Below are positions 1 to 16,128 of a stretch of DNA of 64,000 nucleotides, in pieces. Positions within the stretch are counted from its first letter, which is position 1; every line of letters starts with the position of its first letter. The position numbers were made by a program, and so were the translations under genes. A model generated the notes under the pieces. That model worked only from the letters and a program-made list of their open reading frames with translations, made no database searches and was not told the DNA's origin. The DNA comes from Escherichia coli (GTDB lineage Bacteria; Pseudomonadota; Gammaproteobacteria; Enterobacterales; Enterobacteriaceae): the NCBI RefSeq assembly GCF_003018235.1, contig NZ_CP027437.1; one strand, written 5' to 3'.

Positions 1-158
1 ATTTGTTCTACAATACCATATGACGCCCGATATTACGCCATACATAGAATATGACTACCTTGACCGTCAGGGTGTTTACAACGGCAGAGATAATTTATCG
101 GAAAACAGTTATCGCATTGGTGTGTCATTTAAACTGTAGTAGACAGGAGACAGTCACA

Positions 159-1265
159 ATGAATAAAACAATAACGGCGCTTGCTATCATAATGGCTTCA
201 TTTGCCGCAAACGCGTCTGTATTACCGGAAACTCCTGTGCCATTTAAAAGTGGTACCGGAGCAATTGATAACGACACTGTCTACATTGGTTTAGGTAGCG
301 CAGGTACAGCATGGTACAAGCTGGATACACAGGCCAAAGATAAAAAATGGACAGCGTTAGCTGCATTCCCTGGTGGGCCGAGAGATCAAGCAACCTCTGC
401 ATTTATTGATGGTAATCTGTATGTGTTTGGCGGCATTGGCAAAAACAGCGAGGGCTTGACTCAGGTATTTAATGACGTACACAAATACAACCCCAAAACC
501 AATAGCTGGGTTAAATTGATGTCGCACGCGCCGATGGGCATGGCGGGCCATGTGACTTTTGTACACAACGGCAAGGCTTATGTTACTGGCGGTGTTAACC
601 AGAATATCTTCAATGGCTATTTTGAAGATCTCAACGAGGCTGGAAAAGATTCAACCGCTATAGATAAAATCAACGCCCACTATTTTGACAAAAAAGCAGA
701 AGATTATTTCTTCAATAAGTTTCTGTTGTCTTTTGATCCCTCAACACAGCAATGGAGTTACGCTGGCGAATCTCCCTGGTACGGAACGGCTGGTGCGGCG
801 GTTGTGAATAAAGGTGATAAAACCTGGCTTATTAATGGCGAAGCCAAACCAGGATTGCGAACGGATGCCGTATTTGAACTTGATTTCACCGGTAATAATT
901 TAAAATGGAATAAGCTTGCTCCCGTCTCATCACCAGATGGCGTCGCTGGCGGTTTTGCAGGCATGAGCAATGACTCACTGATATTTGCCGGAGGGGCCGG
1001 ATTCAAAGGGTCACGGGAAAATTACCAAAACGGTAAGAACTATGCGCATGAAGGCCTGAAAAAATCATATAGCACTGATATTCATCTTTGGCATAACGGG
1101 AAATGGGATAAATCTGGTGAATTATCGCAAGGTCGGGCCTACGGAGTATCATTGCCCTGGAATAATAGTTTATTAATTATTGGCGGTGAAACTGCAGGCG
1201 GCAAAGCGGTGACGGATTCAGTTTTAATTTCTGTGAAGGATAATAAAGTCACAGTACAAAACTAA
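159..1265 (+). CDS. nanM: N-acetylneuraminate mutarotase NanM (YjhT), periplasmic Kelch-repeat protein
   Basis: 368-aa reading frame from ATG 159, with AGGAGA at 145-150. Signal peptide MNKTITALAIIMASFAANA. Full-length match by eye to E. coli NanM, and nanS follows as in the nanCMS operon. Confidence 0.93.
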   Translation: MNKTITALAIIMASFAANASVLPETPVPFKSGTGAIDNDTVYIGLGSAGTAWYKLDTQAKDKKWTALAAFPGGPRDQATSAFIDGNLYVFGGIGKNSEGLTQVFNDVHKYNPKTNSWVKLMSHAPMGMAGHVTFVHNGKAYVTGGVNQNIFNGYFEDLNEAGKDSTAIDKINAHYFDKKAEDYFFNKFLLSFDPSTQQWSYAGESPWYGTAGAAVVNKGDKTWLINGEAKPGLRTDAVFELDFTGNNLKWNKLAPVSSPDGVAGGFAGMSNDSLIFAGGAGFKGSRENYQNGKNYAHEGLKKSYSTDIHLWHNGKWDKSGELSQGRAYGVSLPWNNSLLIIGGETAGGKAVTDSVLISVKDNKVTVQN

Positions 1266-1329
1266 CGCTTCAGGGTCCCAGTAAAGGGGCCCTGCTATCA
1301 ATTTGTCATTTGTATTACGCGAAAATTAT

Positions 1330-2310
1330 ATGAACGCAATAATATCGCCCGATTATTACTATGTTCTTACCGTTGCTGGTCAGTCTAATGCCATGGCGTA
1401 TGGCGAAGGACTGCCATTACCGGACAGGGAAGATGCGCCTCATCCCAGAATTAAACAATTAGCGAGATTTGCGCATACGCATCCCGGAGGCCCGTCATGT
1501 CACTTTAACGACATTATTCCACTGACTCACTGCCCACACGATGTTCAGGATATGCAGGGTTATCACCATCCTCTGGCAACGAATCATCAAACACAGTACG
1601 GCACCGTTGGCCAGGCACTGCATATTGCACGGAAATTACTGCCCTTTATTCCTGATAACGCAGGGGTTCTCATCGTTCCGTGTTGCCGTGGCGGATCGGC
1701 TTTTACCGCGGGCAGCGAAGGGAAATATTCAGAACGGCACGGAGCCAGCCATGATGCTTGTCGTTGGGGAACGGATACTCCGCTATACCAGGATTTAGTC
1801 AGCAGAACGCGAGCCGCACTGGCAAAAAATCCGCAGAACAAATTCCTCGGCGTATGCTGGATGCAAGGCGAATTTGACTTAATGACCAGTGACTACGCGT
1901 CACACCCTCAACACTTTAATCATATGGTTGAAGCCTTTCGTAGGGAGCTAAAACAATACCATTCTCAGCTTAATAATATTACTGACGCACCGTGGTTTTG
2001 CGGCGATACCACCTGGTACTGGAAAGAAAATTTCCCTCATGCGTATGAAGCTATTTATGGCAATTATCAAAATAATGTTTTAGCCAATATTATTTTCGTC
2101 GACTTCCAGCAACAAGGTGCAAGAGGACTGACGAACGCGCCTGATGAAGATCCAGACGATTTAAGCACGGGATATTACGGTTCAGCGTACCGGTCACCGG
2201 AGAACTGGACGACGGCACTGCGAAGCAGTCATTTCAGCGCGGCAGCCCGTCGGGGGATTATTTCTGACAGGTTTGTAGAAGCAATTTTGCAGTTTTGGCG
2301 CGAAAGGTGA
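1330..2310 (+). CDS. nanS: 9-O-acetyl-N-acetylneuraminate esterase NanS (YjhS)
   Basis: 326 aa from ATG 1330 (MNAIISPDYYYVLTVAGQSNAMAYGEG...). SGNH-like GQSN motif. Position directly after nanM. Confidence 0.92.
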   Translation: MNAIISPDYYYVLTVAGQSNAMAYGEGLPLPDREDAPHPRIKQLARFAHTHPGGPSCHFNDIIPLTHCPHDVQDMQGYHHPLATNHQTQYGTVGQALHIARKLLPFIPDNAGVLIVPCCRGGSAFTAGSEGKYSERHGASHDACRWGTDTPLYQDLVSRTRAALAKNPQNKFLGVCWMQGEFDLMTSDYASHPQHFNHMVEAFRRELKQYHSQLNNITDAPWFCGDTTWYWKENFPHAYEAIYGNYQNNVLANIIFVDFQQQGARGLTNAPDEDPDDLSTGYYGSAYRSPENWTTALRSSHFSAAARRGIISDRFVEAILQFWRER

Positions 2311-2317
2311 GCGTTCA

Positions 2318-2518
2318 TTAATTTGATTTATTTGCATCCATTAGCGCTTTTAACTGCTCCGGCGTAAACGGTGGTTTGCGTCGGTGCAACATCGCATGGC
2401 AATTAGGGCACACAGGAAGCAAATCATTAACTGGATCCAGCTGGTAATCCTCTTTAATGGCTGAAAGCGGCACCAGGTGATGCACATTAAGCAATTTCAG
2501 AACCGCATGCTCATACAT
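2318..2518 (-). pseudogene. HNH endonuclease remnant (C-terminal HNH half only)
   Basis: 66-aa ORF with HHLVPLS...NDLLPVCPNCHAMLH, which is the second half of an HNH motif. The usual upstream Cys pair and N-terminal domain are absent and no ORF continues upstream. Its stop lies 7 nt from the nanS stop, in convergent orientation. Confidence 0.5.
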
Positions 2519-2655
2519 ATTTCCCCCTAAGTTTGCTCACTGCCTTTAATTTATGTCACAGGCAATGTAATTCACCTGAAGCTCATCTTGAATCTGTCCT
2601 TCTACTTAGTCATTACCCTACTGGCACAACCGACCTCAAGATGAGCTTCTTACTT

Positions 2656-3264
2656 TTAACGATGTATCAGAACAATCTTGCGCCGGGAGAATAGCGTTTC
2701 CGCAGACAGCTGGAATTTATATTCCGCGGCCTTCAGCTTTCGCGATTTAAGCATTTTCATCGTGATACCCCTTATTTTCCCTGACTCAACCTGTCTCTTG
2801 ATTTCGCCGGTGCTCAGCATGAGCTGCTTTTGCAAAATCGACAGCAGGCTGACCTGAAACGAACGGGAAATCCTGACGCTAACCTTGACCCATTTGCCGG
2901 GAGAAAGGCTGGCTAACCACTGCTCCTGAATGCGAAAATCAGGCCGACCCGATAGCTCTGCGTTGTTCCGCTTCAGCATCGCGATATCACAGGAAAAATG
3001 TTGAACCGTGGCTGCATCGTTGCTCATCAGCCGGTTATGAAGTTCGCGGTCAATTTTGCTGACGTGCAGGCGCGAAAATAGGGAGATATTCCAGGTGTAA
3101 TCACAGTGTGTGCATTTATAGATACTCCACACGTCCAGCACCTTCTTTTGCGAATTAATCCGAAATGCACCTGATGGCGTGAAGTCCCGTTTAATGTTGC
3201 ATGAAGGGCATCGCTTCGCAATGCGCTGATACCCCACGGGCGTGACGGTCCATGTAACTTTCAT
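2656..3264 (-). CDS. Zinc-ribbon protein, DUF1062-like (hypothetical)
   Basis: 202-aa ORF with CPSC...(31 aa)...CTHC near the N-terminus. The overall pattern resembles the DUF1062 family from memory. Not verified by search. Confidence 0.5.
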   Translation of the reverse strand: MKVTWTVTPVGYQRIAKRCPSCNIKRDFTPSGAFRINSQKKVLDVWSIYKCTHCDYTWNISLFSRLHVSKIDRELHNRLMSNDAATVQHFSCDIAMLKRNNAELSGRPDFRIQEQWLASLSPGKWVKVSVRISRSFQVSLLSILQKQLMLSTGEIKRQVESGKIRGITMKMLKSRKLKAAEYKFQLSAETLFSRRKIVLIHR

Positions 3265-3559
3265 AACCTACCTTTTTTAACCCATACAAAACCGGATCCG
3301 TACTGAACGGACCATGGATGTTTATGTATGAAAAATATTTAAGAGATATTTTTCAGAGGGTTAAAAAAAGATTTCCAACTATGCAATCCTGTCGGTGAGC
3401 AAAGAGATATAGCGAGACTATCAAAACGGCAATTATTGGGTATATGAGTTCAATCAATATTCATGATGGTTATGGCTTGTTCTATTGATCTGACACATTA
3501 AACACGGCGCATTAATTTTGTATGTTTTATGAACAACCCAACAACAAAAGGAGCGCGAT

Positions 3560-3811
3560 ATGACACAGCACGAACGGTTTTGTCAGGCCTGCGGAATGCC
3601 GATGTCCGCACCTGATGCGCAGGGGAGTAGCGATAAATACTGTGCATACTGCAGCGATAGCAACGGCAATCTTAAACCCTGGGAAGAGGCGGTATCAGGC
3701 TTGGCCAGCTTCCTTGATTCCTGGCAAAAAGTCGGTCCAGAAGAAGCACAGAAGCGTGCAAAACGTTATCTGACGGCAATGCCTGCCTGGGCTCATAAAG
3801 CGGACGAGTGA
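3560..3811 (+). CDS. Small zinc-ribbon domain protein (hypothetical)
   Basis: 83-aa ORF with AAGGAG at 3548-3553 upstream of the ATG. Motif CQACGMP...CAYCSD gives four Cys in a zinc-ribbon arrangement. Confidence 0.6.
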   Translation: MTQHERFCQACGMPMSAPDAQGSSDKYCAYCSDSNGNLKPWEEAVSGLASFLDSWQKVGPEEAQKRAKRYLTAMPAWAHKADE

Positions 3812-3875
3812 ATAACAAAGTCAGGGTGATTTAGGCAGTCTATCTTCACTCCGCTGATTCCATTAAGGAGAGCCG

Positions 3876-4267
3876 ATGTTTTCTCACATTATGCTTGGAA
3901 CCAACAACCTGCCACGCGCCATTGCATTCTACGATCCGTTGATGGATATGCTGGGGTATCCCCGCGGCGGCAGGAAGAGGAGATCGCATGGTGGGGCGTT
4001 TTCAACGGTAATAACACTACGGCACTGGGTATCAGTAGGCCATTTGATAAACAGGTTGCCACGACCCGAAATGGAGTGATGGTCGCCCTGATTGCGCGTT
4101 CTGCCGAACACATCCAGCAAGTTTCATGTGCTAGCTTTAAATCACGGTGGCACTGACGAGGGAGCACCTGGCCAGCGTCCGCATTACGGCGAAGGGTTCT
4201 ACAGCGCTTACGTCAGAGACACCGATGGCAACAAGCTGGCTTACGTTTATTACACCGCACAATCCTG
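3876..4267 (+). pseudogene. VOC/glyoxalase-family protein gene disrupted by two frameshifts
   Basis: Start MFSHIMLGTNNLPRAIAFYDPLMDMLGYP is in frame 1. The middle (EEIAWWGVFNGNNTTALGISRPFDKQVATTRNGVMVALIARSAEHIQQV) is in another frame. The end (HVLALNHGGTDEGAPGQRPHYGEGFYSAYVRDTDGNKLAYVYYTAQS*) is in a third frame. Shifts lie near 3960-3972 and near 4121 (extra T in caagttTcat). Confidence 0.8.
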
Positions 4268-4512
4268 AGAACGATAAAGCGGGGGCCTCAGCGCCCCCAC
4301 CTGAAACTAAACCGATCCCGCAGATGTCAATGAGCGTTGAACGAGTTGATAAATGCCGAGATGTCTGACTGTTTTTACGCCAGAACTCCATGGTGTGACA
4401 ACCATACACATACTCCCTTCTTGACACCTTTAAACCATTTAACCGCATGCCTCTGTCTGCCCTGCAGGGACGGCTGATGCCTGTGTGTTGTCTGGCGGTA
4501 AGGAACAATACT

Positions 4513-4674
4513 ATGTACGCAAAATCCTTTATCGCTCTCGACGGGAATGGTCGTCTGACCGGTGCCCGTACTGCGCAGACCGCCCCTTACGATCGTTATA
4601 CCTGCCACCTCTGCGGTAGCGTGCTGCAATACCATCCTGAATACATCACCGAACGCCCGTGCTTTGAACAGTAA
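4513..4674 (+). pseudogene. Short zinc-ribbon ORF, probably the N-terminal remnant of a longer gene
   Basis: 53 aa from ATG 4513 (AAGGA upstream). YTCHLCGSVLQYHPEY...CFEQ* looks like a CxxC...(H) N-terminal module. Downstream sequence is broken across frames. Confidence 0.3.
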
Positions 4675-5266
4675 CCAACACACTGACAGAGGGCGGCGAA
4701 AATGCTTTATGCAAATCTTGATGCAAAGGCAGCCAGACGAATTCGTAAGTTACGCTTTTACGTGGCAGATACTCAAAGCAGACTGGCATTGTAGCGACGA
4801 TTGCCACGGTGAACGCTATTGTATGGCATGTAGTACCTGAGACTTCAGCCGCCCAGTAGATATAGCATCATGAAAAAACTGAAATGCTTTCTTGCCAACA
4901 ACTCACTGAGCTAGTATGCCTCCACCGATGTAACAATTAGAGCAAGCGTCAAAGTGCGAAACTGCCCTCACGTAGCTGCAAGTTAACACCAGGAAATCCT
5001 GGTTCAAACACGACCAGCTCTATGTTAGCGGCAAGCAATCGTTGAACTAAACGCATATGCAGCCGGAGATGAAAGTTAGGAAAAAAGCAGAGGCTGATAA
5101 GAATTATGCACGTTGAGCTGGGATCGTAATACCCCACTTAAAATGTACAAGGGGAGTAGTCTAATGATGTTAAATACGAACCTTCAGTATTGTTCATTCA
5201 CCAATTTTCCCATATTCTCTCATCATTAATATTCTCTGCCGAATTTTATAGGGCTAACTCGCTGAA

Positions 5267-5473
5267 ATGAATGACAAAGCTTTAACCTTGAAAGATGTGG
5301 TGGCTTACTTAAAGTTGGCAGAAAAAACAGCGTATAGGTTGACTAGCGAAGGCAAATTGCCGGGATTTAAGGTTGAAGGCTCATGACGCTTCAAACGAGA
5401 GGATTTAGATATGTGGATTGAAGGTCAGAAGACTCAAAGCTACCCGAGTATCACAAAATCCAATCGTGGTTGA
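5267..5473 (+). pseudogene. Excisionase/MerR-type helix-turn-helix (HTH_17-like) gene with an in-frame TGA
   Basis: MNDKALTLKDVVAYLKLAEKTAYRLTSEGKLPGFKVEGS*RFKREDLDMWIEGQ.... The stop at 5384-5386 occupies the position of the conserved Trp (G-x-WRF motif), which fits a TGG->TGA change. Confidence 0.7.
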
Positions 5474-5666
5474 TCAAGTGGATAAACATGAAAAGTCGGT
5501 AGCCCTCAAAGGCCACTTGCCACATGCAGTGAAGCAAGCCGTTGTGCAAGCTCTACTGAAAGAAGGTGATATCGCCCGAACGTTGCTCAAGGATCCACAA
5601 GTTATGGCAAGTTATGTTGAGCTGATTTTCGACATGATGAAGCAGAATAAAAATATGAATATCTAA
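5418..5666 (+). CDS. Hypothetical 82-aa ORF (non-ATG start), overlapping the tail of the HTH pseudogene
   Basis: ORF track only. TTG start, no recognisable motif. Could be the frameshifted C-terminus of the upstream HTH gene. Confidence 0.2.
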   Translation: MKVRRLKATRVSQNPIVVDQVDKHEKSVALKGHLPHAVKQAVVQALLKEGDIARTLLKDPQVMASYVELIFDMMKQNKNMNI

Positions 5667-5708
5667 AAGATTTTGGGCTATCTATTACGTTTTAAAATGA
5701 GATAAATA

Positions 5709-8246
5709 ATGATAAATGACCATGAAGAACTAGAACTTGCTAAAGCTCAGGCAAAAGAAATATGGAAGATCCTTGATTATGTTCGAGGAGCATCACCTAT
5801 ATCTAATTATCGCTCATTAGCGTATTCAATCTTCTTCGTACGCTATCTTCAATCCAATACAGGTCAGCATTTTGAGGCAGAAAGGTTCGACTCTTTTAAT
5901 GTCATCGCCCAGTATTCCTACGATCTTGTAAACTATGCCGTTCAACTTGGATTGATTCATAGCGACGTATCTAAATTCTTAATTTATTATTTAGAAAACA
6001 CACTCCGTTCATTTGTCAATATTGATGAGTCTTTTGTTCGTTATGCAATTAGAGATGGTCTACTCAATAAAACCCCTGCAATAGCGTCGCTTTCTTTATC
6101 AGAACTGGATTTACTTTTTGCCGAGAATGAAGGTAAGTCAGGAGGTGAGTTTTATACCCCTAGAGACGTCAACTTATTGGTTAAAATATTAGGATTGAGT
6201 TATCAACCAAAGTCAATATGTGACCCATTTGCAGGTGCTGGAAACACAGCATTTCCTTTTGCCAATACTGGTATTGAAAAAGTTAGGATTGATACTCAAG
6301 AAATTAATAGAGATGCTTACTTTAAACTAGTAATAAGTAGAGTCATCAGGAAAATAGAAGGTCGAGACTATTTCGGCGATTCCCTATCACAACCATTATA
6401 TCAAGAAAATAAATATGATCTGATAGTTTCTTTCCCACCTTTTGGCATGAAAATTCCTAAAGCCACTCGAAATAATATTTACTATAAAACAAGTAATAAG
6501 TGGCTGGATATTACTGAAATCTTGCCAGAAAGTAGAAGTGATTGGTTTATAACATTATCAATGCTTCCAGCCCTTTCTGAGGGGGGTAAGATACTAGTAG
6601 GTATGTCACTTGGGGCTTTGACAAGAGCAGGCTCTGAGGCAAAGGTTCGTGAGTATTTAGTCTCTCGCGGAATTATCGAACAAGTAATTCTTTTACCTAA
6701 AAATATTTATTACTCTACGGCTATCTCAACTGTACTTCTTGTCCTCAACTCAGGAACAAGTAACATAAATAACAGAAGTATTAAATTTGTAGATGCTTCA
6801 CTGTTTTACGAGCCTGCCCGTGGTCGAAACACCCTCACAACAAAAAATATAAATGAGATCGTAGAGGCTTGTCATAAAGATGGCCGATTTAGTATTAGTT
6901 CATCTCATACCCAAATAGCAAACAGAGACTTTAATTTAGATCCGTCTCTTTATGTACGTAAAGATCTCAAAATCAGTGAGGTTTCTTTAAAAAATTTTAG
7001 AGGATACTCTGACTTTAAAGTTTCGATACATCCTTCTTTAAATGTATTGGTTGGTGAGAACGGCGTCGGGAAAACTTCGATATTAGAAGCATTAGCATGT
7101 GGCCTTGGTCCTTTCCTTACTGCTATGCCTGATGCTAAAGGAAAACTGATAAAAAAATCAGATATCCATATAAGTTCAAAAGGAATCGCAAATTATGCTC
7201 GAATATCGATTGAAACAACATCAAGTTTAAGTTGGGATCTTGTGGCAAAGGGGGTTGATGTTTCCGAGCCCCCTAAGATAGGAACATCAGCATTAACTAG
7301 CTACGCTACTCATCTTGTAGATAGTCAGTCTGAATATCCACTCATTGCTTATTATGGGACTAACCGTGCTCTTACTTCTACCAGTTCTAAAGTTGCAATA
7401 AATCCATTCGAGAAAGAAAATCGTGGGGAAGGTTATGACTTTGCTTTAGATGCTAAAGTTAACTACGGCATCTTAAAGAACTGGTTTTCAAAAATAGAGG
7501 TTGATGAGCTTCGAAAACGTGATGAACTAAAAGACCATAAATTCATTCATCCGGCTAAGAGACTTGTTTCAGAGGCTGTTTACCAGATTGTTGATCGAGC
7601 TACATGCTTGGAGTTCGACAAAAATAGTAACGATGTTATGGTTCATTGGAAAAATGAGCAGGGAGAGTGCGTAAAGCTTACATTGGAACAACTAAGTGAA
7701 GGGTATAGAAATATGGTATCCCTGACCATTGACCTAGTGAGGCGTGCTTATTTACTTAATCCTACCAAACCGAAACCGCTAACAGTTAATGGGATCGTTT
7801 TAATTGATGAAATTGAACTTCACTTGCACCCTAGATGGCAGCAAAAGATTTTAAATGATCTTACTAAGCTGTTTAAGAATATTCAGTTTATTGTCACGAC
7901 ACATAGTCCTCAAGTCTTAACAACAATCAAAGCCGATTGTATCCGTATTGTTTCCGTCAATGCTAACGAAGCAAAATTAGTGACAGGAACTACTACTTAC
8001 GGTTCTGAAAGCTCAAGAATGTTGGAAGATGTTTTAGGTGGTAACAATCGCGCCCAACATCTTGATATTGTTAAAAAACTAAACCGTTATACAGAGTTAG
8101 TAGAGGCCGACAAATGGGATACCGATGAGGCATTAGAACTCAAAAAAGAGTTATATAAATGGGGTGGTCAGACAGAAGACGAGCTTCAAAAATTAGAAAC
8201 TGATATTCGAATTCGCGAGTTCGAGCGTGGCAATGAAAAAGATTAA
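5709..8246 (+). CDS. Fusion protein: HsdM-like N6-adenine DNA methyltransferase domain + PtuA-type (AAA_15/21, ABC/OLD-like) ATPase
   Basis: 845 aa. The N-terminal ~415 aa carry an HsdM_N-like start (IWKILDYVRG...YRSLAYSIFFVRYL), GGEFYTPRDV (6141-6170), motif I DPFAGAGN (6222-6245), the motif IV position SFPPFG (6429-6446) and ILLPKNIYYSTAISTVLLVLN. The C-terminal ~425 aa carry LKNFRGY, Walker A GENGVGKT (7053-7076), LSEGYRNM, Walker B IVLIDEIELHLHP (7794-7832) and IVTTHSP. Confidence 0.8.
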   Translation: MINDHEELELAKAQAKEIWKILDYVRGASPISNYRSLAYSIFFVRYLQSNTGQHFEAERFDSFNVIAQYSYDLVNYAVQLGLIHSDVSKFLIYYLENTLRSFVNIDESFVRYAIRDGLLNKTPAIASLSLSELDLLFAENEGKSGGEFYTPRDVNLLVKILGLSYQPKSICDPFAGAGNTAFPFANTGIEKVRIDTQEINRDAYFKLVISRVIRKIEGRDYFGDSLSQPLYQENKYDLIVSFPPFGMKIPKATRNNIYYKTSNKWLDITEILPESRSDWFITLSMLPALSEGGKILVGMSLGALTRAGSEAKVREYLVSRGIIEQVILLPKNIYYSTAISTVLLVLNSGTSNINNRSIKFVDASLFYEPARGRNTLTTKNINEIVEACHKDGRFSISSSHTQIANRDFNLDPSLYVRKDLKISEVSLKNFRGYSDFKVSIHPSLNVLVGENGVGKTSILEALACGLGPFLTAMPDAKGKLIKKSDIHISSKGIANYARISIETTSSLSWDLVAKGVDVSEPPKIGTSALTSYATHLVDSQSEYPLIAYYGTNRALTSTSSKVAINPFEKENRGEGYDFALDAKVNYGILKNWFSKIEVDELRKRDELKDHKFIHPAKRLVSEAVYQIVDRATCLEFDKNSNDVMVHWKNEQGECVKLTLEQLSEGYRNMVSLTIDLVRRAYLLNPTKPKPLTVNGIVLIDEIELHLHPRWQQKILNDLTKLFKNIQFIVTTHSPQVLTTIKADCIRIVSVNANEAKLVTGTTTYGSESSRMLEDVLGGNNRAQHLDIVKKLNRYTELVEADKWDTDEALELKKELYKWGGQTEDELQKLETDIRIREFERGNEKD

Positions 8247-9021
8247 TAAGCTAGATGAGCCAAATCGGCTTGGTGTGTTCAAGGCTACTCATCCTAATGC
8301 TTTGTGGGAGAGGGATAAAAACTCAATTGAAGAGGCTTTCCGTTGTTGCATTGCCAGATATCAAGAAACTCTACAACAATTACGTACGGACCAAGGTAAT
8401 TTATGTGCATATTGTGAACAGGATTTAATGTCTGGAACTAATGGGGCATTAGATGACTGCCGTATTGAGCATTTTCATCCGAAATCTAAACGTGAACAGG
8501 GAGAACCTAATTGGGCTTTGGAATGGAGCAATTTGTTAGTTGTTTGCTGTGGCGGAAATCAAAGTAAAGTTGTTAATCCTGGGCAAAGATTTGATGCTGA
8601 TCCCAAAAATTACTCTTGCGATGTACCAAAGAGTGACAAAATTTTAGATACCATTATATTAAATCCACTTAATTTACCTGAATTAAATATCTGGAAGTTT
8701 CATCGTTCTTCGGGGCAAATTTCCGTAAATGAAGATTCCTGTTTAGAATTTGGTATAAGTGTTGAAATGGCACACCAAACAATTAAAGAATTGAATTTAA
8801 ATTCCCCTCGATTAATTAGATTTCGAAAGGCTATTCTAAATAATCTCAACATTTTAATAACAGAAAGGCTGAAGAAGGGACAAACGGTAGAGCAAGCTGT
8901 TAGATTTATTGCCATATCACTCTTTAGAAAAAATGGAGCAGGTGATTGGCCCTCTTTTTTTAGTGCAACACGATATTATTTAGGTCAGCAGGCTGAGCTT
9001 GTTTTAGCCCAACCTATTTAA
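8233..9021 (+). CDS. PtuB-type HNH nuclease (TIGR02646-like)
   Basis: 262 aa from ATG 8233 (GTG 8227 also possible). Overlaps the stop of the upstream gene by 14 nt. Motifs CAYCEQ (8404-), CRIEHFHPKS (8467- for EHFH), EWSNLLVVCCGG and SCDVPKSDK follow the CxxC...EHxxPK...NL..aC order typical of Septu and retron-Ec78 PtuB. Confidence 0.75.
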   Translation: MKKINKLDEPNRLGVFKATHPNALWERDKNSIEEAFRCCIARYQETLQQLRTDQGNLCAYCEQDLMSGTNGALDDCRIEHFHPKSKREQGEPNWALEWSNLLVVCCGGNQSKVVNPGQRFDADPKNYSCDVPKSDKILDTIILNPLNLPELNIWKFHRSSGQISVNEDSCLEFGISVEMAHQTIKELNLNSPRLIRFRKAILNNLNILITERLKKGQTVEQAVRFIAISLFRKNGAGDWPSFFSATRYYLGQQAELVLAQPI

Positions 9022-9040
9022 CATACTTTCAACTAGTTAG

Positions 9041-9063
9041 AGAGGCTGCTTTTGGCAGCCTCT
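9041..9063. terminator. Hairpin between convergent operons (putative bidirectional terminator)
   Basis: agaggctgc-ttttg-gcagcctct forms a 9-bp stem. It sits between the + strand stop at 9021 and the - strand stop at 9082. Confidence 0.55.
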
Positions 9064-9081
9064 TGCAGAGTGCAGAATCGA

Positions 9082-10515
9082 CTACAGGGGCGATGCTAGC
9101 TCAGAGAACCAAGCGTGAACTGATCTGTAAAATGTGCTGATTGACCAAAACTCACTGCATGCAGCAACTAACAGAATGACCACTAAGAGGATCACTACAG
9201 TAGAAGTCATTCTTTCCACACGGCAGTATGATCCCATCGCATCTTTTACAGGTTGTCTAGCCAGTTCCTGATAATCCAGCTCATCCAGAAATCCGTATAA
9301 TTTAGTTCTCCAGGTGGTTCTAACTCTTTCAAGTAATGAAATTGTTTGCCTATTAATATAGACAGACATTCCATAGGAAATAACTATATAAACCGCGATA
9401 GCACAAAAAACCAAAGCGTAAATATTTTGCAAACCAACTGATTTTACTGCATCCAGACTGTAGCGAATAACCAAGACACTAATTACAAGAGCCATATCTT
9501 TCCATAAGGAAGAGGACAAATCTCGGGATTGCTGAATGATCTTTTGTGTATCTTCAGCCAGCGTTTTCCGCAAATCACCCAAGGATTTCATAGTATCTTT
9601 ACCACCAGTCCTGATATGGGCCTTATACATTAACCGTGCAGACTCCAAAGCTGATGAGAGTCGAAGCATCACTCCCTCACAAAAGTTCAGGTCTGAAGGC
9701 CACTCTCTAGCCAGCTCGCTGGACAAAAACGTATGTTTCAGCTCAGTTTCATTCCCCTCTAGAAAAATCCACTTTGCCGCTTCCTGGATAATATCAAAAG
9801 CAGGTAACGCTGCCGTCTCATCGCCGAATGCTATTTTTCTGGGAGGCTTTCCCGCAAGCCCCACCATCATTTCGTCAGCAAAAAAAAGTTCATTTGCAAA
9901 ACATTTCAGCAACTCTCGGCATCCTAGCAATTTCCATATCTTGATTGCTTCATCAGTCTTCTCACTACAAGTTTCAAGTATCCAAGGGGCAATGGCATCT
10001 GGAGGAAGAAAAGTTGTTGAATAACATTTGATGATACTTTTTGTTACTGAAGGCTTAGTGATAGCTGTTGCATCACCAGCACTCACCGGCTGTATCTCCT
10101 TCCATGGATGCACATACCAACTTATTGTCTGAAAGCCTTCAGTAATAAACAGCCCATAAATATGTTTGTACCGACAGAGTTTGCTATCTTGAAGTAAAAA
10201 AGTGCGCCATCCTTCTAAGGTAAAAAGCCTCAGTATCCCCGGAATTTCATTATAAGTGATGGTAATGTAGTGCTTCTGCCCTGGGACCCCCTCTCTCGGA
10301 TGAATAACATCTCTGCTCTCATCGATAAAAACGATCTTGAGATCTTCCGCATGTACATCCACTATTTCTCCCCATAAATCAAGGGATTCACTATCCATTG
10401 TGGCGGAAATAAAAAGCTTATGGATAGACACCTGCTGGTCCTCTGTGATCACAAGGTCAGATAAATGTCGTGAGTGGCATATAGCCTTACCGATTTTTTC
10501 CAATATCGATATCAT
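9082..10515 (-). CDS. Hypothetical 477-aa protein with C-terminal transmembrane helices
   Basis: Long AT-rich ORF. The soluble N-terminal ~330 aa show no motif I recognise. The C-terminal ~140 aa hold hydrophobic segments MALVISVLVI, IYALVFCAIAVYIVISYGMSVYI and STVVILLVVILLVAACSEFW. The start ATG overlaps the upstream gene by 29 nt. Confidence 0.6.
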   Translation of the reverse strand: MISILEKIGKAICHSRHLSDLVITEDQQVSIHKLFISATMDSESLDLWGEIVDVHAEDLKIVFIDESRDVIHPREGVPGQKHYITITYNEIPGILRLFTLEGWRTFLLQDSKLCRYKHIYGLFITEGFQTISWYVHPWKEIQPVSAGDATAITKPSVTKSIIKCYSTTFLPPDAIAPWILETCSEKTDEAIKIWKLLGCRELLKCFANELFFADEMMVGLAGKPPRKIAFGDETAALPAFDIIQEAAKWIFLEGNETELKHTFLSSELAREWPSDLNFCEGVMLRLSSALESARLMYKAHIRTGGKDTMKSLGDLRKTLAEDTQKIIQQSRDLSSSLWKDMALVISVLVIRYSLDAVKSVGLQNIYALVFCAIAVYIVISYGMSVYINRQTISLLERVRTTWRTKLYGFLDELDYQELARQPVKDAMGSYCRVERMTSTVVILLVVILLVAACSEFWSISTFYRSVHAWFSELASPL

Positions 10516-11548
10516 CTGTTACCAATCCTGCAGTCACAATTACAATTCGTTTTCGCCCGTCTTCCATATTTTCTACTTCTGGTGCATTGTCTTCATCGTA
10601 GATAATGATTACATCTTCCAATGTTTCCAGTTTTCTCTTCCGGGGCTTCTGAATGTTATCGGGAATGATGCGGAAAGATTCACCTGAAATTCCTAAATCC
10701 TTTATTTTACGAAAAAAATACTTAACCAGAGGGTGTTCTTCCTCCAAAGGACCAAAAATCTGGGTCAACAATGGCAGTGCTTCATCAGTATTAAAATCCT
10801 GTTCGCCATGGCGTAAAGTTTCATAAATTTTGTTTACTCCGCTGCGCTTGATCTCTTCAGGTAGTAAGTTTCGATGCTTTTTATATACATCTTTTAATAC
10901 AGTAACTAGCTTATCGCTGAGCTGAGTTGGGTCATTGACGCGCTTAACCTGTAGAAATCGTTCAAAATAGACAGAGATGTTAGTACGTTTGCTGCGATCT
11001 CGTACGACAACTAATCCGCCCGGCAAATCTTCATTCAGCCGTACCAGTGCGATTTTCTGCATGGCTTCGGCTTTTTTAACGAAACTTTCGCGAAAGCGTT
11101 CGAGTTTAGGTACCTGAAACTCATCTCCTTCAACATCCAGCACATAACGGACTACATCTTCATTGTCATACTTAATCAACGCATACAGTTTCTCATCGTT
11201 GAGTGTATGAAGTTCAAAAAGGAAAAAAACGCCCATACTGGCATTCTTGGTATGGTGGTGAGACTGAAAATCGCTTGCCAATAAGGAGGATTGCTCAGTA
11301 AAGCAGCCGATATCGGTGTCTGCATGTTCCCTGATGATCCTCAGGATTCGCTCTGTATTTGACAACTCCTTAAAATGAAACATATTGCCACTAACTGCAG
11401 ATTTGATACGTTCCAGAAAGAAATCAACATGCTCCGGAGGGGAAATTTCGCTGAGTAAAACAGGGACTTCCAACTCACCGCCAACCACATGAAAAATCAT
11501 CCTTTTTATTGATAATGCATTGATTTCTTCATCCGTTAAAAAACTCAT
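10487..11548 (-). CDS. YejK/NA37-like nucleoid-associated-protein family member (hypothetical)
   Basis: 353 aa. Motif order resembles the NdpA/YejK family: IKRMIFHVVG near the N-terminus, MGVFFLFEL...KLYALIKYD, QKIALVRLNED and VVVRDRSKRTNISVYFERFLQV. Assigned by eye only. Confidence 0.5.
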   Translation of the reverse strand: MSFLTDEEINALSIKRMIFHVVGGELEVPVLLSEISPPEHVDFFLERIKSAVSGNMFHFKELSNTERILRIIREHADTDIGCFTEQSSLLASDFQSHHHTKNASMGVFFLFELHTLNDEKLYALIKYDNEDVVRYVLDVEGDEFQVPKLERFRESFVKKAEAMQKIALVRLNEDLPGGLVVVRDRSKRTNISVYFERFLQVKRVNDPTQLSDKLVTVLKDVYKKHRNLLPEEIKRSGVNKIYETLRHGEQDFNTDEALPLLTQIFGPLEEEHPLVKYFFRKIKDLGISGESFRIIPDNIQKPRKRKLETLEDVIIIYDEDNAPEVENMEDGRKRIVIVTAGLVTDDIDIGKNR

Positions 11549-11744
11549 TTTTATTTCTCAATATAGTGTTTATATTTACTACCGTGAGCCATCTTACCTA
11601 AGCGTAGAACGTGGCGGAAAACACGATAACATTATTGCATAGCTTACGGCGTAACTTATCCTCGCCCCAGACAGAATAAACGTCAAAATAAAATAATGAA
11701 AATATGATCGAGACAGCATTAGCTGCCCCGCTTTCTTAGACTTT

Positions 11745-12998
11745 TTACATTATTAGGGCAAAATCAAACGGACTCACCCCCTTCTCCCGATTCGCATCCA
11801 GATAATTTGCCCACCACTGCAGCATCAACCTACGCTCCCCAAGATGTTCCGCCTTATGGATGTATGCCGCCCGCACAGAGCTACGCTCCTGATGGCTCAT
11901 CTGCCGCTCCACTGCATTCCTCGACCACAATCCTGATTCAATAAGTGAACTACAGGCCATCGTCCTGAAACCATGCCCACAGACTTCCGTTTTGGTGTCA
12001 TAGCCCATAACTCGCAAAGCCTTGTTCACCGTATTCTCACTCATCGGCTTATGCGGATCGTGATCGCCCACAAAAATCAGCTCTCGATTTCCATTCATGC
12101 TTTTGATCTTTTCCAAAATAGCTAAGGCCTGCCGCGATAAGGGTACAAGATGGGGAGTTCGCATCTTCGAACCACGCTGAGAATGTTTAACACCGTCCAA
12201 CGGTTCACGCTCACCGGGGATCGTCCACATGGCCGTTTCAAAATCCACTTCTGACCAACGGGCAAAGCGCAGTTCGCTTGAACGGATGAAAACTAACAAA
12301 GTGAGTTCGACAGCCAGTCGAGTTAACGGCCTGCCGGAGTAATGATCAATGCGGTGAAGTAATTCAGGTATGCGGTTAAGCTCCAGAGCCGCACGATGCT
12401 GTCTTTTAGCAGTAGCAACCGCACCGGTAATCTCTTGCGCGGGGTTGTAGTCGATTAAGCCGCTCTGAACGGCAAAGCGCATAATCGCGGTAGTTCGCTG
12501 CTGTAAACGGGCGGCGACTTCAAGACGTCCGGATGACTCCACCGCTTTAATGGGTACAAGAAGATCCCGAGTCTTAAGCTCTGCAATGTTCCGCTTACCG
12601 ATAGCAGCAAAGAGATTATCTTCTAGGCTTTTCAATACACGAGCACTATGCGATGCAGACCACTTCTGATTACTGGCATGCCAGTCTCTGACGACCACTT
12701 CAAACGTTATCGCCTCTTGCTCCTGTTCTACCTTAACCGCTTTCTTGTTTTCACTGGGATCGACGCCGTTCGCTAAAAGCTTACGCGCTTCGTCTCGCCG
12801 CGATCGAGCATCAGCTAACGAAACTTCAGGATACTTCCCTAGCGCCAGCATCTTCTCTTTACCACCGAAACGATAACGAAGCCGCCAGTATTTGGAGCCG
12901 TTAGGGTGAACCAGCAAAACCATGCCTTCACCATCAGTAAGTTTATAGGCTTTTGCTTCAGGCTTTGCCGAACGAACCTTCACATCACTCAGAGCCAT
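11745..12998 (-). CDS. intB: P4-type tyrosine integrase (IntB-like)
   Basis: 417 aa from ATG 12998 (MALSDVKVRSAKPEAKAYKLTDGEGM...YWRLRYRFGGKEKMLALGKYP). C-terminal catalytic region contains HGFR...R...Y. Directly adjacent to leuX. Confidence 0.9.
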   Translation of the reverse strand: MALSDVKVRSAKPEAKAYKLTDGEGMVLLVHPNGSKYWRLRYRFGGKEKMLALGKYPEVSLADARSRRDEARKLLANGVDPSENKKAVKVEQEQEAITFEVVVRDWHASNQKWSASHSARVLKSLEDNLFAAIGKRNIAELKTRDLLVPIKAVESSGRLEVAARLQQRTTAIMRFAVQSGLIDYNPAQEITGAVATAKRQHRAALELNRIPELLHRIDHYSGRPLTRLAVELTLLVFIRSSELRFARWSEVDFETAMWTIPGEREPLDGVKHSQRGSKMRTPHLVPLSRQALAILEKIKSMNGNRELIFVGDHDPHKPMSENTVNKALRVMGYDTKTEVCGHGFRTMACSSLIESGLWSRNAVERQMSHQERSSVRAAYIHKAEHLGERRLMLQWWANYLDANREKGVSPFDFALIM

Positions 12999-13158
12999 GA
13001 TGAATATCCTTTCAAGGGTTCTGTGTGGGTACAAACATTATCGAACCGGGATATACCCGCAGTTGTACCCGCATCAGTAAGTTGATGTAGATTGAATCAG
13101 GTTGACTTAGGTTGAGTGAAAAAGCGAGGAAAGCCTTGCGGATACTGGATTTCAGGCA

Positions 13159-13183
13159 TAAAAAAAGACCTCAGTTGAGGTCT
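13159..13183 (-). terminator. leuX rho-independent terminator
   Basis: On the minus strand, agacctcaactgaggtct forms a hairpin followed by a T-run (the A-run at 13159-13166 on the plus strand). Confidence 0.7.
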
Positions 13184-13196
13184 ATTTACATACTTA

Positions 13197-13281
13197 TGGT
13201 GCCGAAGGCCGGACTCGAACCGGCACGTATTTCTACGGTTGATTTTGAATCAACTGCGTCTACCGATTTCGCCACTTCGGC
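13197..13281 (-). tRNA. leuX: tRNA-Leu(CAA)
   Basis: The reverse complement reads GCCGAAGTGGCGAAATCGGTAGACGCAGTTGATTCAAAATCAACCGTAGAAATACGTGCCGGTTCGAGTCCGGCCTTCGGCACCA. It has a CAA anticodon loop, a long variable arm and an encoded CCA. Confidence 0.97.
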
Positions 13282-13476
13282 ACTGAAGAGGTATGCGGAA
13301 AACGTTGTGGATTATACCTGTCGCACGCCACCATGCAAGCGCCAGCTTGCTCGCACCTCGCTAAGTGCTGAAATTTTCAGCATTGCATACAGTGATGTGT
13401 AACCTTTGTCACACTCCAGGCACCCCGCCCTGCCATGCTCTACACTTCCCAGACAACACCAGAGAAGGACCAAAAA

Positions 13477-14496
13477 ATGTCGATGATAAAAAGCTATGCT
13501 GCAAAAGAAGCGGGCGGCGAACTGGAAGTTTATGAGTACGATCCCGGTGAACTGAAGCCACAAGATGTTGAAGTGCAGGTGGATTACTGCGGGATCTGTC
13601 ATTCCGATCTGTCAATGATCGATAACGAATGGGGATTTTCACAATATCCACTGGTTGCCGGGCATGAGGTGATTGGTCGCGTAGTGGCGCTCGGGAGTGC
13701 CGCGCAGGATAAAGGTTTGCAGGTCGGTCAGCGTGTCGGGATTGGCTGGACGGCACGCAGCTGCGGGCATTGCGATGCCTGTATTAGCGGTAATCAGATC
13801 AACTGCGAGCAAGGTGCGGTGCCGACGATTATGAATCGCGGTGGCTTTGCCGAGAAGTTGCGTGCGGACTGGCAATGGGTGATTCCACTGCCAGAAAATA
13901 TCGACATTGAATCTGCCGGACCGCTGTTGTGCGGCGGTATCACGGTCTTTAAACCGCTGTTGATGCACCATATCACTGCCACCAGCCGCGTTGGGGTAAT
14001 TGGTATTGGCGGGCTGGGGCATATAGCTATAAAACTTCTGCACGCAATGGGATGCGAGGTGACAGCCTTTAGTTCTAATCCGGCGAAAGAGCAGGAAGTG
14101 CTGGCGATGGGTGCCGATAAAGTGGTGAATAGCCGCGATCCACAGGCACTGAAAGCACTGGCGGGGCAGTTTGATCTCATTATCAACACCGTCAACGTCA
14201 GCCTCGACTGGCAGCCTTATTTTGAGGCGCTGACGTATGGCGGTAATTTCCACACCGTCGGTGCGGTTCTCACGCCGTTGCCGGTTCCGGCCTTTACGCT
14301 GATTGCGGGCGATCGCAGTGTCTCTGGCTCTGCTACCGGCACGCCCTATGAGTTGCGTAAGCTGATGCGCTTTGCCGCCCGCAGCAAGGTTGCGCCGACC
14401 ACCGAACTGTTCCCGATGTCGAAAATTAACGACGCCATCCAGCATGTGCGCGACGGTAAGGCGTGTTACCGCGTGGTTCTGAAAGCCGACTTCTGA
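13477..14496 (+). CDS. ahr: NADPH-dependent aldehyde reductase Ahr (YjgB), Zn-dependent ADH family
   Basis: 339 aa from ATG 13477 ([24 protein letters not shown]...GICHSDL...GHEVIG). Confidence 0.95.
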
Positions 14497-14625
14497 TCCC
14501 TTTGCCGGGTGCCTGTCGCCCGGCGTTTAAATCTCTTTGGAAGGCGTCTCGCAATCTGCTGAATTTAGCGGTGAAGAGTGCGCAGCCGTTGCCTATACTC
14601 CAGGCAGGAAACTGGAGGATATCTC

Positions 14626-16128
14626 ATGAGCGAACCCCTGTTAATTGCCCGCACGTCGGACACAGAACTGTTTTTATTGCCGGGAATGGCGAATCGTCAC
14701 GGGCTGATTACTGGCGCAACGGGGACGGGTAAAACCGTTACGCTGCAAAAGCTGGCGGAGTCATTGTCGGAAATCGGTGTTCCGGTGTTTATGGCCGATG
14801 TGAAAGGTGATTTAACGGGAGTTGCGGAGGAAGGTACATCTTCGGAAAAACTGCTCGCAAGGCTTAAAAATATCGGCGTAAATGACTGGCAACCTCATGC
14901 TAATCCGGTGGTGGTGTGGGATATCTTTGGCGAGAAAGGCCACCCAGTGCGGGCGACGGTTTCGGATTTGGGGCCTCTGTTGCTGGCGCGACTGTTGAAT
15001 CTCAACGATGTGCAATCTGGCGTGCTGAATATTATCTTCCGCATTGCGGACGATCAGGGATTGTTGCTGCTCGACTTTAAAGATTTGCGGGCGATTACCC
15101 AGTACATCGGCGATAACGCCAAATCCTTCCAGAATCAGTACGGTAATATCAGTAGCGCATCGGTTGGTGCCATCCAGCGCGGGCTGTTATCGCTGGAACA
15201 GCAAGGCGCGGCGCACTTTTTTGGTGAGCCGATGCTGGATATCAAAGACTGGATGCGTACCGATGCCAACGGTAAAGGCGTTATCAATATCCTCAGCGCC
15301 GAGAAGCTTTATCAGATGCCGAAACTGTACGCCGCCAGCCTGCTGTGGATGCTTTCAGAGTTATATGAACAATTGCCTGAAGCGGGCGATCTGGAGAAAC
15401 CAAAACTGGTGTTTTTCTTCGACGAAGCACATCTGCTGTTTAACGATGCGCCACAGGTACTGCTGGATAAGATTGAGCAGGTGATAAGGCTTATTCGCTC
15501 AAAAGGCGTGGGCGTCTGGTTCGTTTCGCAAAACCCGTCAGATATTCCGGATAATGTGCTCGGACAGCTAGGTAATCGCGTTCAACACGCTTTGCGGGCT
15601 TTTACGCCCAAAGATCAGAAAGCAGTAAAAGCTGCGGCGCAAACCATGCGGGCCAATCCGGCGTTTGATACCGAAAAGGCAATCCAGGAACTGGGGATCG
15701 GCGAGGCGTTAATCTCGTTTCTCGATGCGAAAGGAAGCCCTTCAGTGGTGGAACGGGCGATGGTGATTGCCCCCTGTTCACGAATGGGGCCGGTGACGGA
15801 AGATGAGCGTAATGGCTTGATTAATCACTCCCCGGTGTATGGCAAGTACGAGGATGACGTGGACCGGGAATCCGCCTATGAGATGTTGCAAAAAGGCTTT
15901 CAGGCCAGTACCGAGCAGCAAAATAATCCTCCCGCGAAAGGGAAAGAGGTGGCGGTGGATGACGGTATTCTTGGTGGATTGAAGGATATTTTGTTTGGCA
16001 CTACCGGACCACGCGGCGGGAAGAAAGATGGTGTGGTGCAAACAATGGCGAAAAGCGCCGCCCGCCAGGTGACGAATCAGATTGTGCGTGGGATGTTGGG
16101 GAGTTTGCTGGGGGGGAGAAAAAGGTAA
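14626..16128 (+). CDS. yjgR: DUF853 P-loop NTPase YjgR
   Basis: 500 aa from ATG 14626. Walker A GATGTGKT. Synteny. Confidence 0.93.

Follow-up and report, generated by a model that had tools for sequence, protein, structure and literature searches.

What occupies the leuX tRNA gene of this Escherichia coli chromosome, and can the occupant still leave it? The region in question spans positions 2311-13281 of the DNA analysed, a single stretch of 64,000 nucleotides that we call the window throughout. leuX is known as defence hotspot #37 of E. coli (Hochhauser et al. 2023, PMC10121019; review PMC12707154), defence genes are found there in 97% of isolates (PMC12707154), and the exchange of cassettes between conserved anchors is how the literature describes it (PMC10121019; PMC12707154). 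Our data make it probable that 2311-13281 is an occupant of hotspot #37, namely a patchwork of cassettes between anchors that is probably immobile and that carries a predicted variant of the Septu system, a gene pair of type II PANGU architecture and a decaying distal stretch of 3 kb. The island is probably a small, rare and no longer mobile version of the known variable leuX island, and the fused Septu system is its most interesting part.

The locus is the leuX site of E. coli, and its right end is formed by two genes:
13197-13281, minus strand: tRNA-Leu(CAA) gene leuX, the anchor of the island (ARAGORN; Rfam tRNA model, 59 bits)
11745-13034, minus strand: full-length P4-type tyrosine integrase (Pfam Arm-DNA-bind_3, Phage_int_M and Phage_integrase)
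The 3' end of leuX (13197) points towards the integrase. An earlier reading of the same DNA, the first-pass annotation, had described this arrangement, and it is borne out by the tRNA calls and the Pfam domains. Translation places the likely start codon of the integrase at the ATG at 12998, which gives a gene of 11745-12998 and a protein of 417 aa. ARAGORN found no other tRNA in the window, and an Rfam scan of 1-16000 gave the tRNA alone. The genes ahr and yjgR lie beyond leuX, and nanM and nanS lie at the left end. Two gene pairs occupy 5709-9021 (5709-8246 and 8227-9021, plus strand) and 9082-11548 (10487-11548 and 9082-10515, minus strand). They had been called AT-rich operons, and their GC contents agree with this: 0.374 and 0.414, where the window as a whole has 0.497 and ahr-yjgR has 0.535.

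Alignment to other E. coli leuX occupants (blastn) defined both junctions, at about 2484-2487 and at 11758-11761. Matches run from position 1 to 2423 or 2487 and resume from 11758-11761, the cargo between them differs, and the strain-specific segment is 2488-11744 (about 9.3 kb). Base-level comparison with E. coli PapM-32-1 and with a second E. coli sequence (L004) placed the left breakpoint at about 2484-2487, inside a widespread HNH endonuclease gene. This gene is intact at 216 aa in L004 and in E. coli L005, and only its C-terminal part is kept in the window. Past about 2487 the window switches to a sequence that is the 5' end of a YbaK-like gene in PapM-32-1, and a chimeric frame spans the junction:
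2318-2518, minus strand: chimeric open reading frame (ORF) of 66 aa (partial PF01844; nucleotide comparison with L004 and with PapM-32-1, L002)
The first 11 or so codons (2488-2518) of this ORF come from the start of the YbaK-like gene and the remainder is the HNH C-terminal remnant. The HNH tail, 2311-2487, occurs in 2480 of the 5426 complete E. coli genomes (approximately 46%), and it is not the strain-specific island DNA for which it had been taken.

A partial second copy of the leuX 3' end, which the first-pass annotation had marked as worth looking for, was not found. A 23-mer of the 3' end, with up to 3 mismatches allowed, had no match elsewhere in the window, including anywhere in 1-11745, and the best local alignment of a 45-mer scored 8.5-9 compared with a shuffle mean of 9.1. 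Such an attachment (att) repeat was also not found in the 45-kb island of PapM-32-1 or in L004. With no distal leuX repeat and a left edge inside the HNH gene, the left end is therefore a breakpoint and not an att site, and the claim that the integrase and the tRNA delimit the island as a unit does not hold. In L004, the integrase 5' end and the intergenic sequence up to the first 12 nt of the tRNA recur at positions 4048-4245 with 77.6% identity. This second copy is likely a relic of an earlier tandem integration, and it has no counterpart in the window.

Of the 5426 complete E. coli genomes, only two contain the cargo (5441-11744), CFSAN018748 and PapM-32-1, and PLSDB has it on no plasmid. 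Identity to CFSAN018748 is 99.4-100% over the entire island with its integrase (99.9% for the integrase), whereas it is 96.1-97.7% in the flanks; ISEc31 stands in that genome where the window has 3958-4630. The cargo shares 99.6-99.8% identity with PapM-32-1, but this falls to 91.2% for the integrase, and the switch occurs exactly at the integrase stop codon. The ahr/yjgR flanks (13301-16000) are only approximately 96% identical to CFSAN018748 and PapM-32-1. An almost identical island is therefore carried by differing host backbones.

Near-identity of an island between less similar flanks fits the recent transfer of a unit, and together with an intact P4-type integrase directly beside the tRNA 3' end it could speak for an active integrative mobile element (a P4-like satellite, an integrative mobilizable element or similar) that moves as a whole through its integrase at leuX. 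We regard this as quite unlikely. The direct repeat of the tRNA 3' end is missing throughout 1-11745, the left end lies inside the HNH gene, and Pfam-type scans found no replication, packaging or transfer genes among the island ORFs. The sole excisionase-like gene of the island is an HTH_17 pseudogene with an in-frame TGA, and the same cargo lies in PapM-32-1 beside an integrase of 91% identity, with the break at the integrase stop codon. With the leuX 3' end present only once and the excisionase-type gene interrupted by a stop codon, the element has most likely lost the ability to excise. One point weighs on the other side: the integrase looks intact, and excision via a cryptic or very short att site is conceivable.

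Since the same cargo stands beside a 91.2%-identical integrase allele and the distal att repeat is missing, the cargo seems to have been swapped by recombination at fixed junctions, and not through integrase and att. The resident P4-type integrase and the tRNA would form a fixed right anchor, and the nanS-proximal HNH gene remnant would form the left anchor. Between them, 2488-11744 would consist of cassettes patched together, with sharp junctions at about 2485, 5441, 9087 and 11744, and the cargo would be exchanged by recombination between the conserved anchors and not by integrase-att excision.

The mosaic structure proposed in the first-pass annotation is supported by the relatives of the single segments. 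The segment 5441-9087 is 95.5% identical to a Klebsiella pneumoniae leuX island (L013), and this match stops precisely at the 3' end of the convergent 477-aa gene of the second pair. The segment 9260-13120, with the integrase and the second pair, is 65-73% identical to a Citrobacter/Enterobacter tRNA-Phe island, and a Zn-ribbon/VOC gene pair further left is like one in KpLE2, the leuX element of K-12. KpLE2 measures roughly 40 kb in K-12. The window had been said to hold a much smaller and different occupant, which is correct, but its size of about 11 kb is not unusual, as other E. coli leuX occupants are as small as 4-8 kb.

PapM-32-1 has a leuX island of approximately 45 kb that contains the cargo of the window (L002; L106 1-49501). 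The part that separates its HNH remnant from the shared segment holds BREX-1, a PLD protein, AbiE, CbtA/YeeU and a pair of a reverse transcriptase and a PRTase-like protein, and an antirestriction gene is also present in this island. The window island as a simple deletion derivative of the PapM-32-1 island was considered and rejected, as the HNH remnant of PapM-32-1 is the shorter one (105 nt as annotated, compared with 177 nt in the window). In Citrobacter/Enterobacter (L007 and L009, 5237-9485), an integrase, a nucleoid-associated protein (NAP) and transmembrane protein pair and an SrfB cluster stand at tRNA-Phe in two different neighbourhoods, which suggests that this island is or was mobile. 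The leuX island of Klebsiella pneumoniae holds two genes (124-153 aa and 298 aa) without a recorded Pfam domain at 10705-12037 of L013 (minus strand). They take the integrase-proximal slot, where the window has its NAP and membrane-protein pair, and are a candidate defence pair.

What do the cassettes encode? The first-pass annotation called both operons defence-like, and this description fits: the first pair has PADLOC matches to Septu and the second fits the type II PANGU architecture. For both pairs the defence role is a prediction from sequence. The first cassette (5441-9021) consists of the following:
5441-5708, plus strand: conserved leader sequence ahead of the Septu genes (blastn match to Klebsiella L013 begins at 5441)
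5709-8246, plus strand: fusion of an HsdM-like domain to PtuA, 845 aa (Pfam N6_Mtase 137-418 and AAA_15/AAA_21; PADLOC; PDB)
8227-9021, plus strand: PtuB, the HNH nuclease of Septu (PADLOC PtuB PDLC00349, E 1.9e-100, full length)
Residues 420-843 of the fusion are a complete PtuA ABC-type ATPase (PADLOC PtuA, E 4.7e-106; PDB PtuA 8ee4, E 3.9e-39, aligned 2-460). Its Walker A (G449-T456), Walker B (D700/E701), signature and H-loop residues are invariant. PtuB exceeds the cutoff of NCBIfam TIGR02646 and likely starts at 8233, and it overlaps ptuA by 14-20 nt. No reverse transcriptase-like ORF was found in 2311-13281 and no msr/msd noncoding RNA was found by Rfam, which returned the tRNA alone; the pair is therefore assigned to Septu and not to a retron. 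By analogy to canonical Septu, the PtuA ATPase and the PtuB nuclease would form an ATP-controlled nuclease complex, and the pair is predicted to be an anti-phage variant of Septu.

Approximately 265 nt upstream of the fusion gene are conserved as DNA, with the same left edge at 5441, in Klebsiella (93.7%) and in Pectobacterium (75.8%), and Aeromonas keeps a 56-nt core (about 5596-5651 of the window). The segment 5441-5708 may be a cassette leader or a promoter element. A promoter and terminator scan of 4800-13300 was uninformative, with 15 promoter-like sites compared with 19.3 in shuffled sequence. The small ORF 5478-5666 was considered as a third Septu component and rejected, its frame being broken in Pectobacterium and mostly absent in Aeromonas.

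The unusual part of the fusion is its N-terminus. Residues 1-419 form an almost complete HsdM-like domain (Pfam N6_Mtase 137-418; PDB match to EcoR124II HsdM, 7bst). In a library of 1.84 billion representative proteins clustered at 50% identity, the HsdM-like::PtuA family comprises four clusters, beyond which scores fall to the level of generic HsdM. A search with the fusion alignment returned almost only unfused PtuA; its patterns derived from the ATPase part, and only L020 was useful. We found no description of an HsdM::PtuA fusion in the literature. The domain was also considered as a recent copy of an adjacent hsdM, which was rejected because the two are only 23% identical in Undibacterium; there, the alignment of the family member P0158 to the neighbouring HsdM spans 11-424 and includes the N-terminal region.

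The motifs that bind S-adenosylmethionine (SAM), namely X, I, II and III (FYTP, DPFAGxG, TQE and GDSL), are invariant or nearly so in the 63 full-length members of the family, and the window has DPFAGAG. Amino-methyltransferases require a (D/N/S)PP(Y/F/W) motif. In the window, motif IV is SFPPFG (residues 241-246), that is, FPPF in place of the catalytic NPPF. In 62 of the 63 members motif IV reads S-[F/L/C]-PP-[F/I/M]; only P0160 keeps NPPF, and the Undibacterium clade has lost the aromatic residue of the motif too. With Phe standing where motif IV should have its catalytic Asn, the methyltransferase is predicted to be inactive, and the HsdM-like domain is most likely a pseudo-enzyme that would still bind SAM.

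The surroundings of the family link it to type I restriction-modification (R-M). In Klebsiella and Undibacterium the fusion pair lies directly downstream of hsdM-hsdS-hsdR and shares their strand; the Shewanella pair is preceded by hsdR and a ygjP-like gene. A different arrangement occurs in Photobacterium carnosum (L105 8001-11293), in which PtuA is fused to HsdS (Methylase_S) and followed by PtuB, between hsdM and hsdR. This HsdS::PtuA is a second, independent wiring of Septu to the type I methylase core, and it suggests that PtuA has been wired to this core repeatedly. Our literature searches turned up no paper on this fusion either. ABC-ATPase defences that are embedded in R-M loci or guard them are a known theme (PrrC/EcoprrI, PARIS and Hma-embedded Septu; bioRxiv 10.1101/2024.01.29.577857).

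The HsdM-like module may be a sensor or adaptor through which PtuAB is linked to type I R-M and its state, to DNA or to the SAM pool, and it would not be a self-marking enzyme. We tentatively suggest that HsdM-like::PtuA/PtuB is an undescribed Septu subtype in which a dead, SAM-binding type I methyltransferase module acts as the infection sensor, a proposal that we consider possible but not probable. If it is true, the module might report a depletion of SAM (by phage SAM lyases), bound anti-restriction DNA mimics or the condition of a type I R-M complex, and the fusion would back up restriction as PrrC does but could also work detached from R-M, as in the window. Two points weigh against our view of the HsdM-like module. 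The fusion pair is standalone in four of the seven contexts sampled (the window, Aeromonas, Pectobacterium and one metagenomic contig), and coupling to type I R-M is therefore not obligatory. The predicted inactivity depends on one motif, and an unusual active site is conceivable.

An active enzyme would make the 845-aa protein and PtuB an R-M-like system, in which the N-terminal domain methylates the host DNA and so protects it against the HNH nuclease. The N6_Mtase domain with fully conserved SAM-binding motifs, the NPPF of P0160 and the PGAP label 'N-6 DNA methylase' are consistent with such a system, which we nevertheless consider unlikely. Only one full-length member retains the motif IV Asn, the others having Phe, Leu or Cys in its place, and in the Undibacterium clade the aromatic residue is gone too. 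A target-recognition subunit is lacking, and tblastn found no HsdS or HsdR homologue in the 64-kb window. Canonical Septu works without a modification enzyme and, to our knowledge, needs none. A non-catalytic HsdM-like domain fused to PtuA remains our preferred reading of the first pair.

The second pair lies between the Septu cassette and the integrase:
10487-11548, minus strand: YejK/NdpA-like NAP (NA37), 353 aa (PF04245)
9082-10515, minus strand: partner protein, 477 aa (hydropathy and charge; AlphaFold2 (AF2) model)
The NAP matches PF04245 with an E value of 1.3e-12 and 48 bits, compared with a cutoff of 24.6 (model positions 3-317 of 325). The partner has an N-terminal alpha/beta domain of approximately 300 aa and, behind it, long helices that include two or more hydrophobic membrane segments (AF2 pLDDT 84). 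It has no match in Pfam, PADLOC or NCBIfam, and its AF2 model found no fold in the PDB at E<=0.001. Its 93 homologues from Entero-, Alpha- and Betaproteobacteria are all annotated as 'hypothetical'. The two genes overlap by 29 nt in the window and by 29-38 nt in Bosea, Citrobacter and Dickeya, where the NAP gene always lies directly upstream of the partner gene, and the overlapping two-gene unit is kept from Alpha- to Gammaproteobacteria. In Citrobacter the unit adjoins an integrase, in Bosea it stands next to CBASS and AbiJ, and in Dickeya toxin-antitoxin pairs surround it. A relative with 40% identity to the partner was also observed at a contig end in E. coli (L107 1-1892), in a lambdoid prophage beside the Q antiterminator gene, which is a typical moron position.

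PANGU systems were defined in an April 2026 preprint (bioRxiv 10.64898/2026.04.06.716658). Type II PANGU consists of the NAP Pag2A and of Pag2B, which has an N-terminal NAP-binding domain (DMK, DNA-mimic) and a C-terminal transmembrane domain; both genes are needed for abortive defence against T4 in E. coli, and the NAP leaves the nucleoid upon infection (10.64898/2026.04.06.716658). Type II PANGU is defined as bicistronic, with genes less than 40 bp apart, and the window pair overlaps by 29 nt. By its architecture, the second pair is a candidate type II PANGU-like system with Pag2A-like and Pag2B-like proteins. If the mechanism of the preprint applies, phage degradation of the chromosome would release the YejK-like protein from the nucleoid, and the freed NAP would bind the soluble N-domain of the membrane-anchored partner, so that the infection is aborted. 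The assignment is weakened by the charge of the N-domain of the partner, which is only mildly acidic (net -9, pI 5.6).

It is unlikely, in our estimation, that the second pair serves the island itself and not defence, as a xenogeneic nucleoid protein that regulates or stabilises the island in the manner of the NdpA-type proteins on integrative and conjugative elements. The pair adjoins the integrase in the window and in the Citrobacter tRNA-Phe island, and one paper discusses NdpA-like proteins on mobile elements as regulators (PMC6606824). However, the Bosea pair, next to CBASS and AbiJ, and the Dickeya pair, flanked by toxin-antitoxin pairs, stand away from any integrase, and the relative of the partner that neighbours the Q antiterminator gene belongs to a lambdoid prophage. 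The strict coupling of the NAP to a membrane protein also matches type II PANGU, in which both genes are required for T4 resistance. A PANGU-like function is thus the reading we retain for this pair.

The distal part of the island (2488-5473) holds the following features:
2656-3264, minus strand: intact DUF1062 gene, 202 aa (PF06353 1-131 of 135, E 4e-40)
3560-3811, plus strand: apparently intact Zn_ribbon_2 gene (PF12674 1-80 of 81)
3876-4268, plus strand: VOC/glyoxalase-family pseudogene with two frameshifts (three-frame reading; repaired translation compared with PF00903)
4513-4840, plus strand: DUF7828 zinc-ribbon pseudogene (PF25165, model positions 1-51 of 87 only)
5267-5473, plus strand: HTH_17 (AlpA/excisionase-type) pseudogene with an in-frame TGA (Pfam)
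The three successive frames of the VOC pseudogene, when joined, cover PF00903 3-120 of 121. The DUF7828 gene has a frameshift or a premature stop at 4672-4674 and is labelled 'frameshifted' by PGAP in PapM-32-1. In the HTH_17 gene the TGA (5384-5386) occupies a conserved Trp position, the Pfam score rises from 32 to 58 bits once it is repaired, and CFSAN018748 and PapM-32-1 carry this pseudogene annotated as a 39-aa stub. The first-pass annotation regarded most frames in 2318-5473 as broken or truncated. This is confirmed for the HNH, VOC, DUF7828 and HTH_17 genes, but the DUF1062 and Zn_ribbon_2 genes are intact.

The Zn-ribbon/VOC pair is 83% identical to two pseudogenes of K-12 KpLE2 that lie between yjhP and sgcX, and the pair and DUF7828 have short relatives of 79-84% identity in many E. 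coli genomes. Because the Zn-ribbon/VOC relatives lie inside the leuX element of K-12, the stretch is an old and recurrent piece of leuX islands. These relatives, together with the HNH tail shared by almost half of the genomes, might suggest that 2311-5473 is ordinary conserved E. coli backbone outside the island. This is very improbable: just 2 of the 5426 complete genomes cover at least 80% of 2311-5708, and the widespread Zn-ribbon/VOC relatives sit within KpLE2, itself a leuX element. For 2488-5440 in particular, a conserved backbone is refuted by the genome coverage and by the blastn junctions. By comparison, 16-64 kb of the window is core chromosome (valS, pepA, yjgN, mgtA to treC, nrdD, ytfR and tamAB), which 4769-5299 of the 5426 genomes cover to at least 80%. 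The contrast with the cargo (5441-11744), present in two genomes, goes well beyond chance.

The distal 3 kb (2488-5440) would be the decaying remnant of an older or larger island. The first-pass annotation placed an older degraded segment beside a younger cargo; this is plausible but not established, as both parts are equally close to CFSAN018748 (99.4-100%). Since the flanks deviate by 2-4%, the decay zone and the cargo have recently travelled together.

The island as such is ordinary, leuX being the most heavily occupied defence hotspot of E. coli. It offers a clean case, resolved to the base, in which the cassettes of a tRNA hotspot are exchanged independently of att sites, with the same cargo beside divergent integrase alleles. 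The pseudo-methyltransferase of the rare Septu variant provides a handle on how Septu senses infection and how ABC-ATPases are wired to type I restriction. The second pair is a divergent PANGU candidate that is naturally borne by E. coli and can be tested in its native host.

A comparison with known systems places these parts. With retron type I-A PtuAB (Ec78/Ec83) the first pair shares neither reverse transcriptase nor msr/msd, and it does not reach the NCBIfam retron-Ec78 equivalog cutoffs (329 compared with 500, and 127 compared with 150). It resembles Septu (Doron 2018; 8ee4) in its complete PtuA with all nucleotide-binding motifs and its adjacent, overlapping PtuB, and differs in the 419-residue N-terminal HsdM-like domain with a degenerate catalytic motif. 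Like PrrC/EcoprrI, PARIS and Hma-embedded Septu, the fusion family has an ABC-ATPase effector genetically tied to type I R-M, but the tie is a covalent link to an HsdM-like or HsdS module and not a separate protein. PrrC-type systems differ further, in that the window has no R-M partner and no known Stp- or Ocr-like trigger. The second pair is like type II PANGU in combining a YejK/NA37 protein with a partner that has a soluble N-domain and a C-terminal membrane domain, and in forming a tight bicistronic unit in defence islands and prophages. It differs from the tested PANGU-Ecu in its mildly acidic N-domain, and the two are likened by architecture and not by sequence.

The whole island was said to be distinct from KpLE2 of K-12, and this is correct: the insertion site is the same and the Zn-ribbon and VOC pseudogenes are related at the identity given above, but the gene content differs. 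None of the fec, sgc, yjh and topAI genes of KpLE2 is in the window, and the defence cargo of the window is absent from K-12. From the general picture of hotspot #37 the island differs in that its cargo combination occurs in only two complete genomes, that it is short and without a detectable att repeat, and that the usual occupants (type I R-M, BREX, DISARM, Dnd and Dpd) are absent from it. In its framework it agrees with hotspot #37, with leuX and an arm-type integrase as the anchor, ahr/yjgR and nanS/nanM as the flanks, and clusters of defence genes that replace one another between the anchors.

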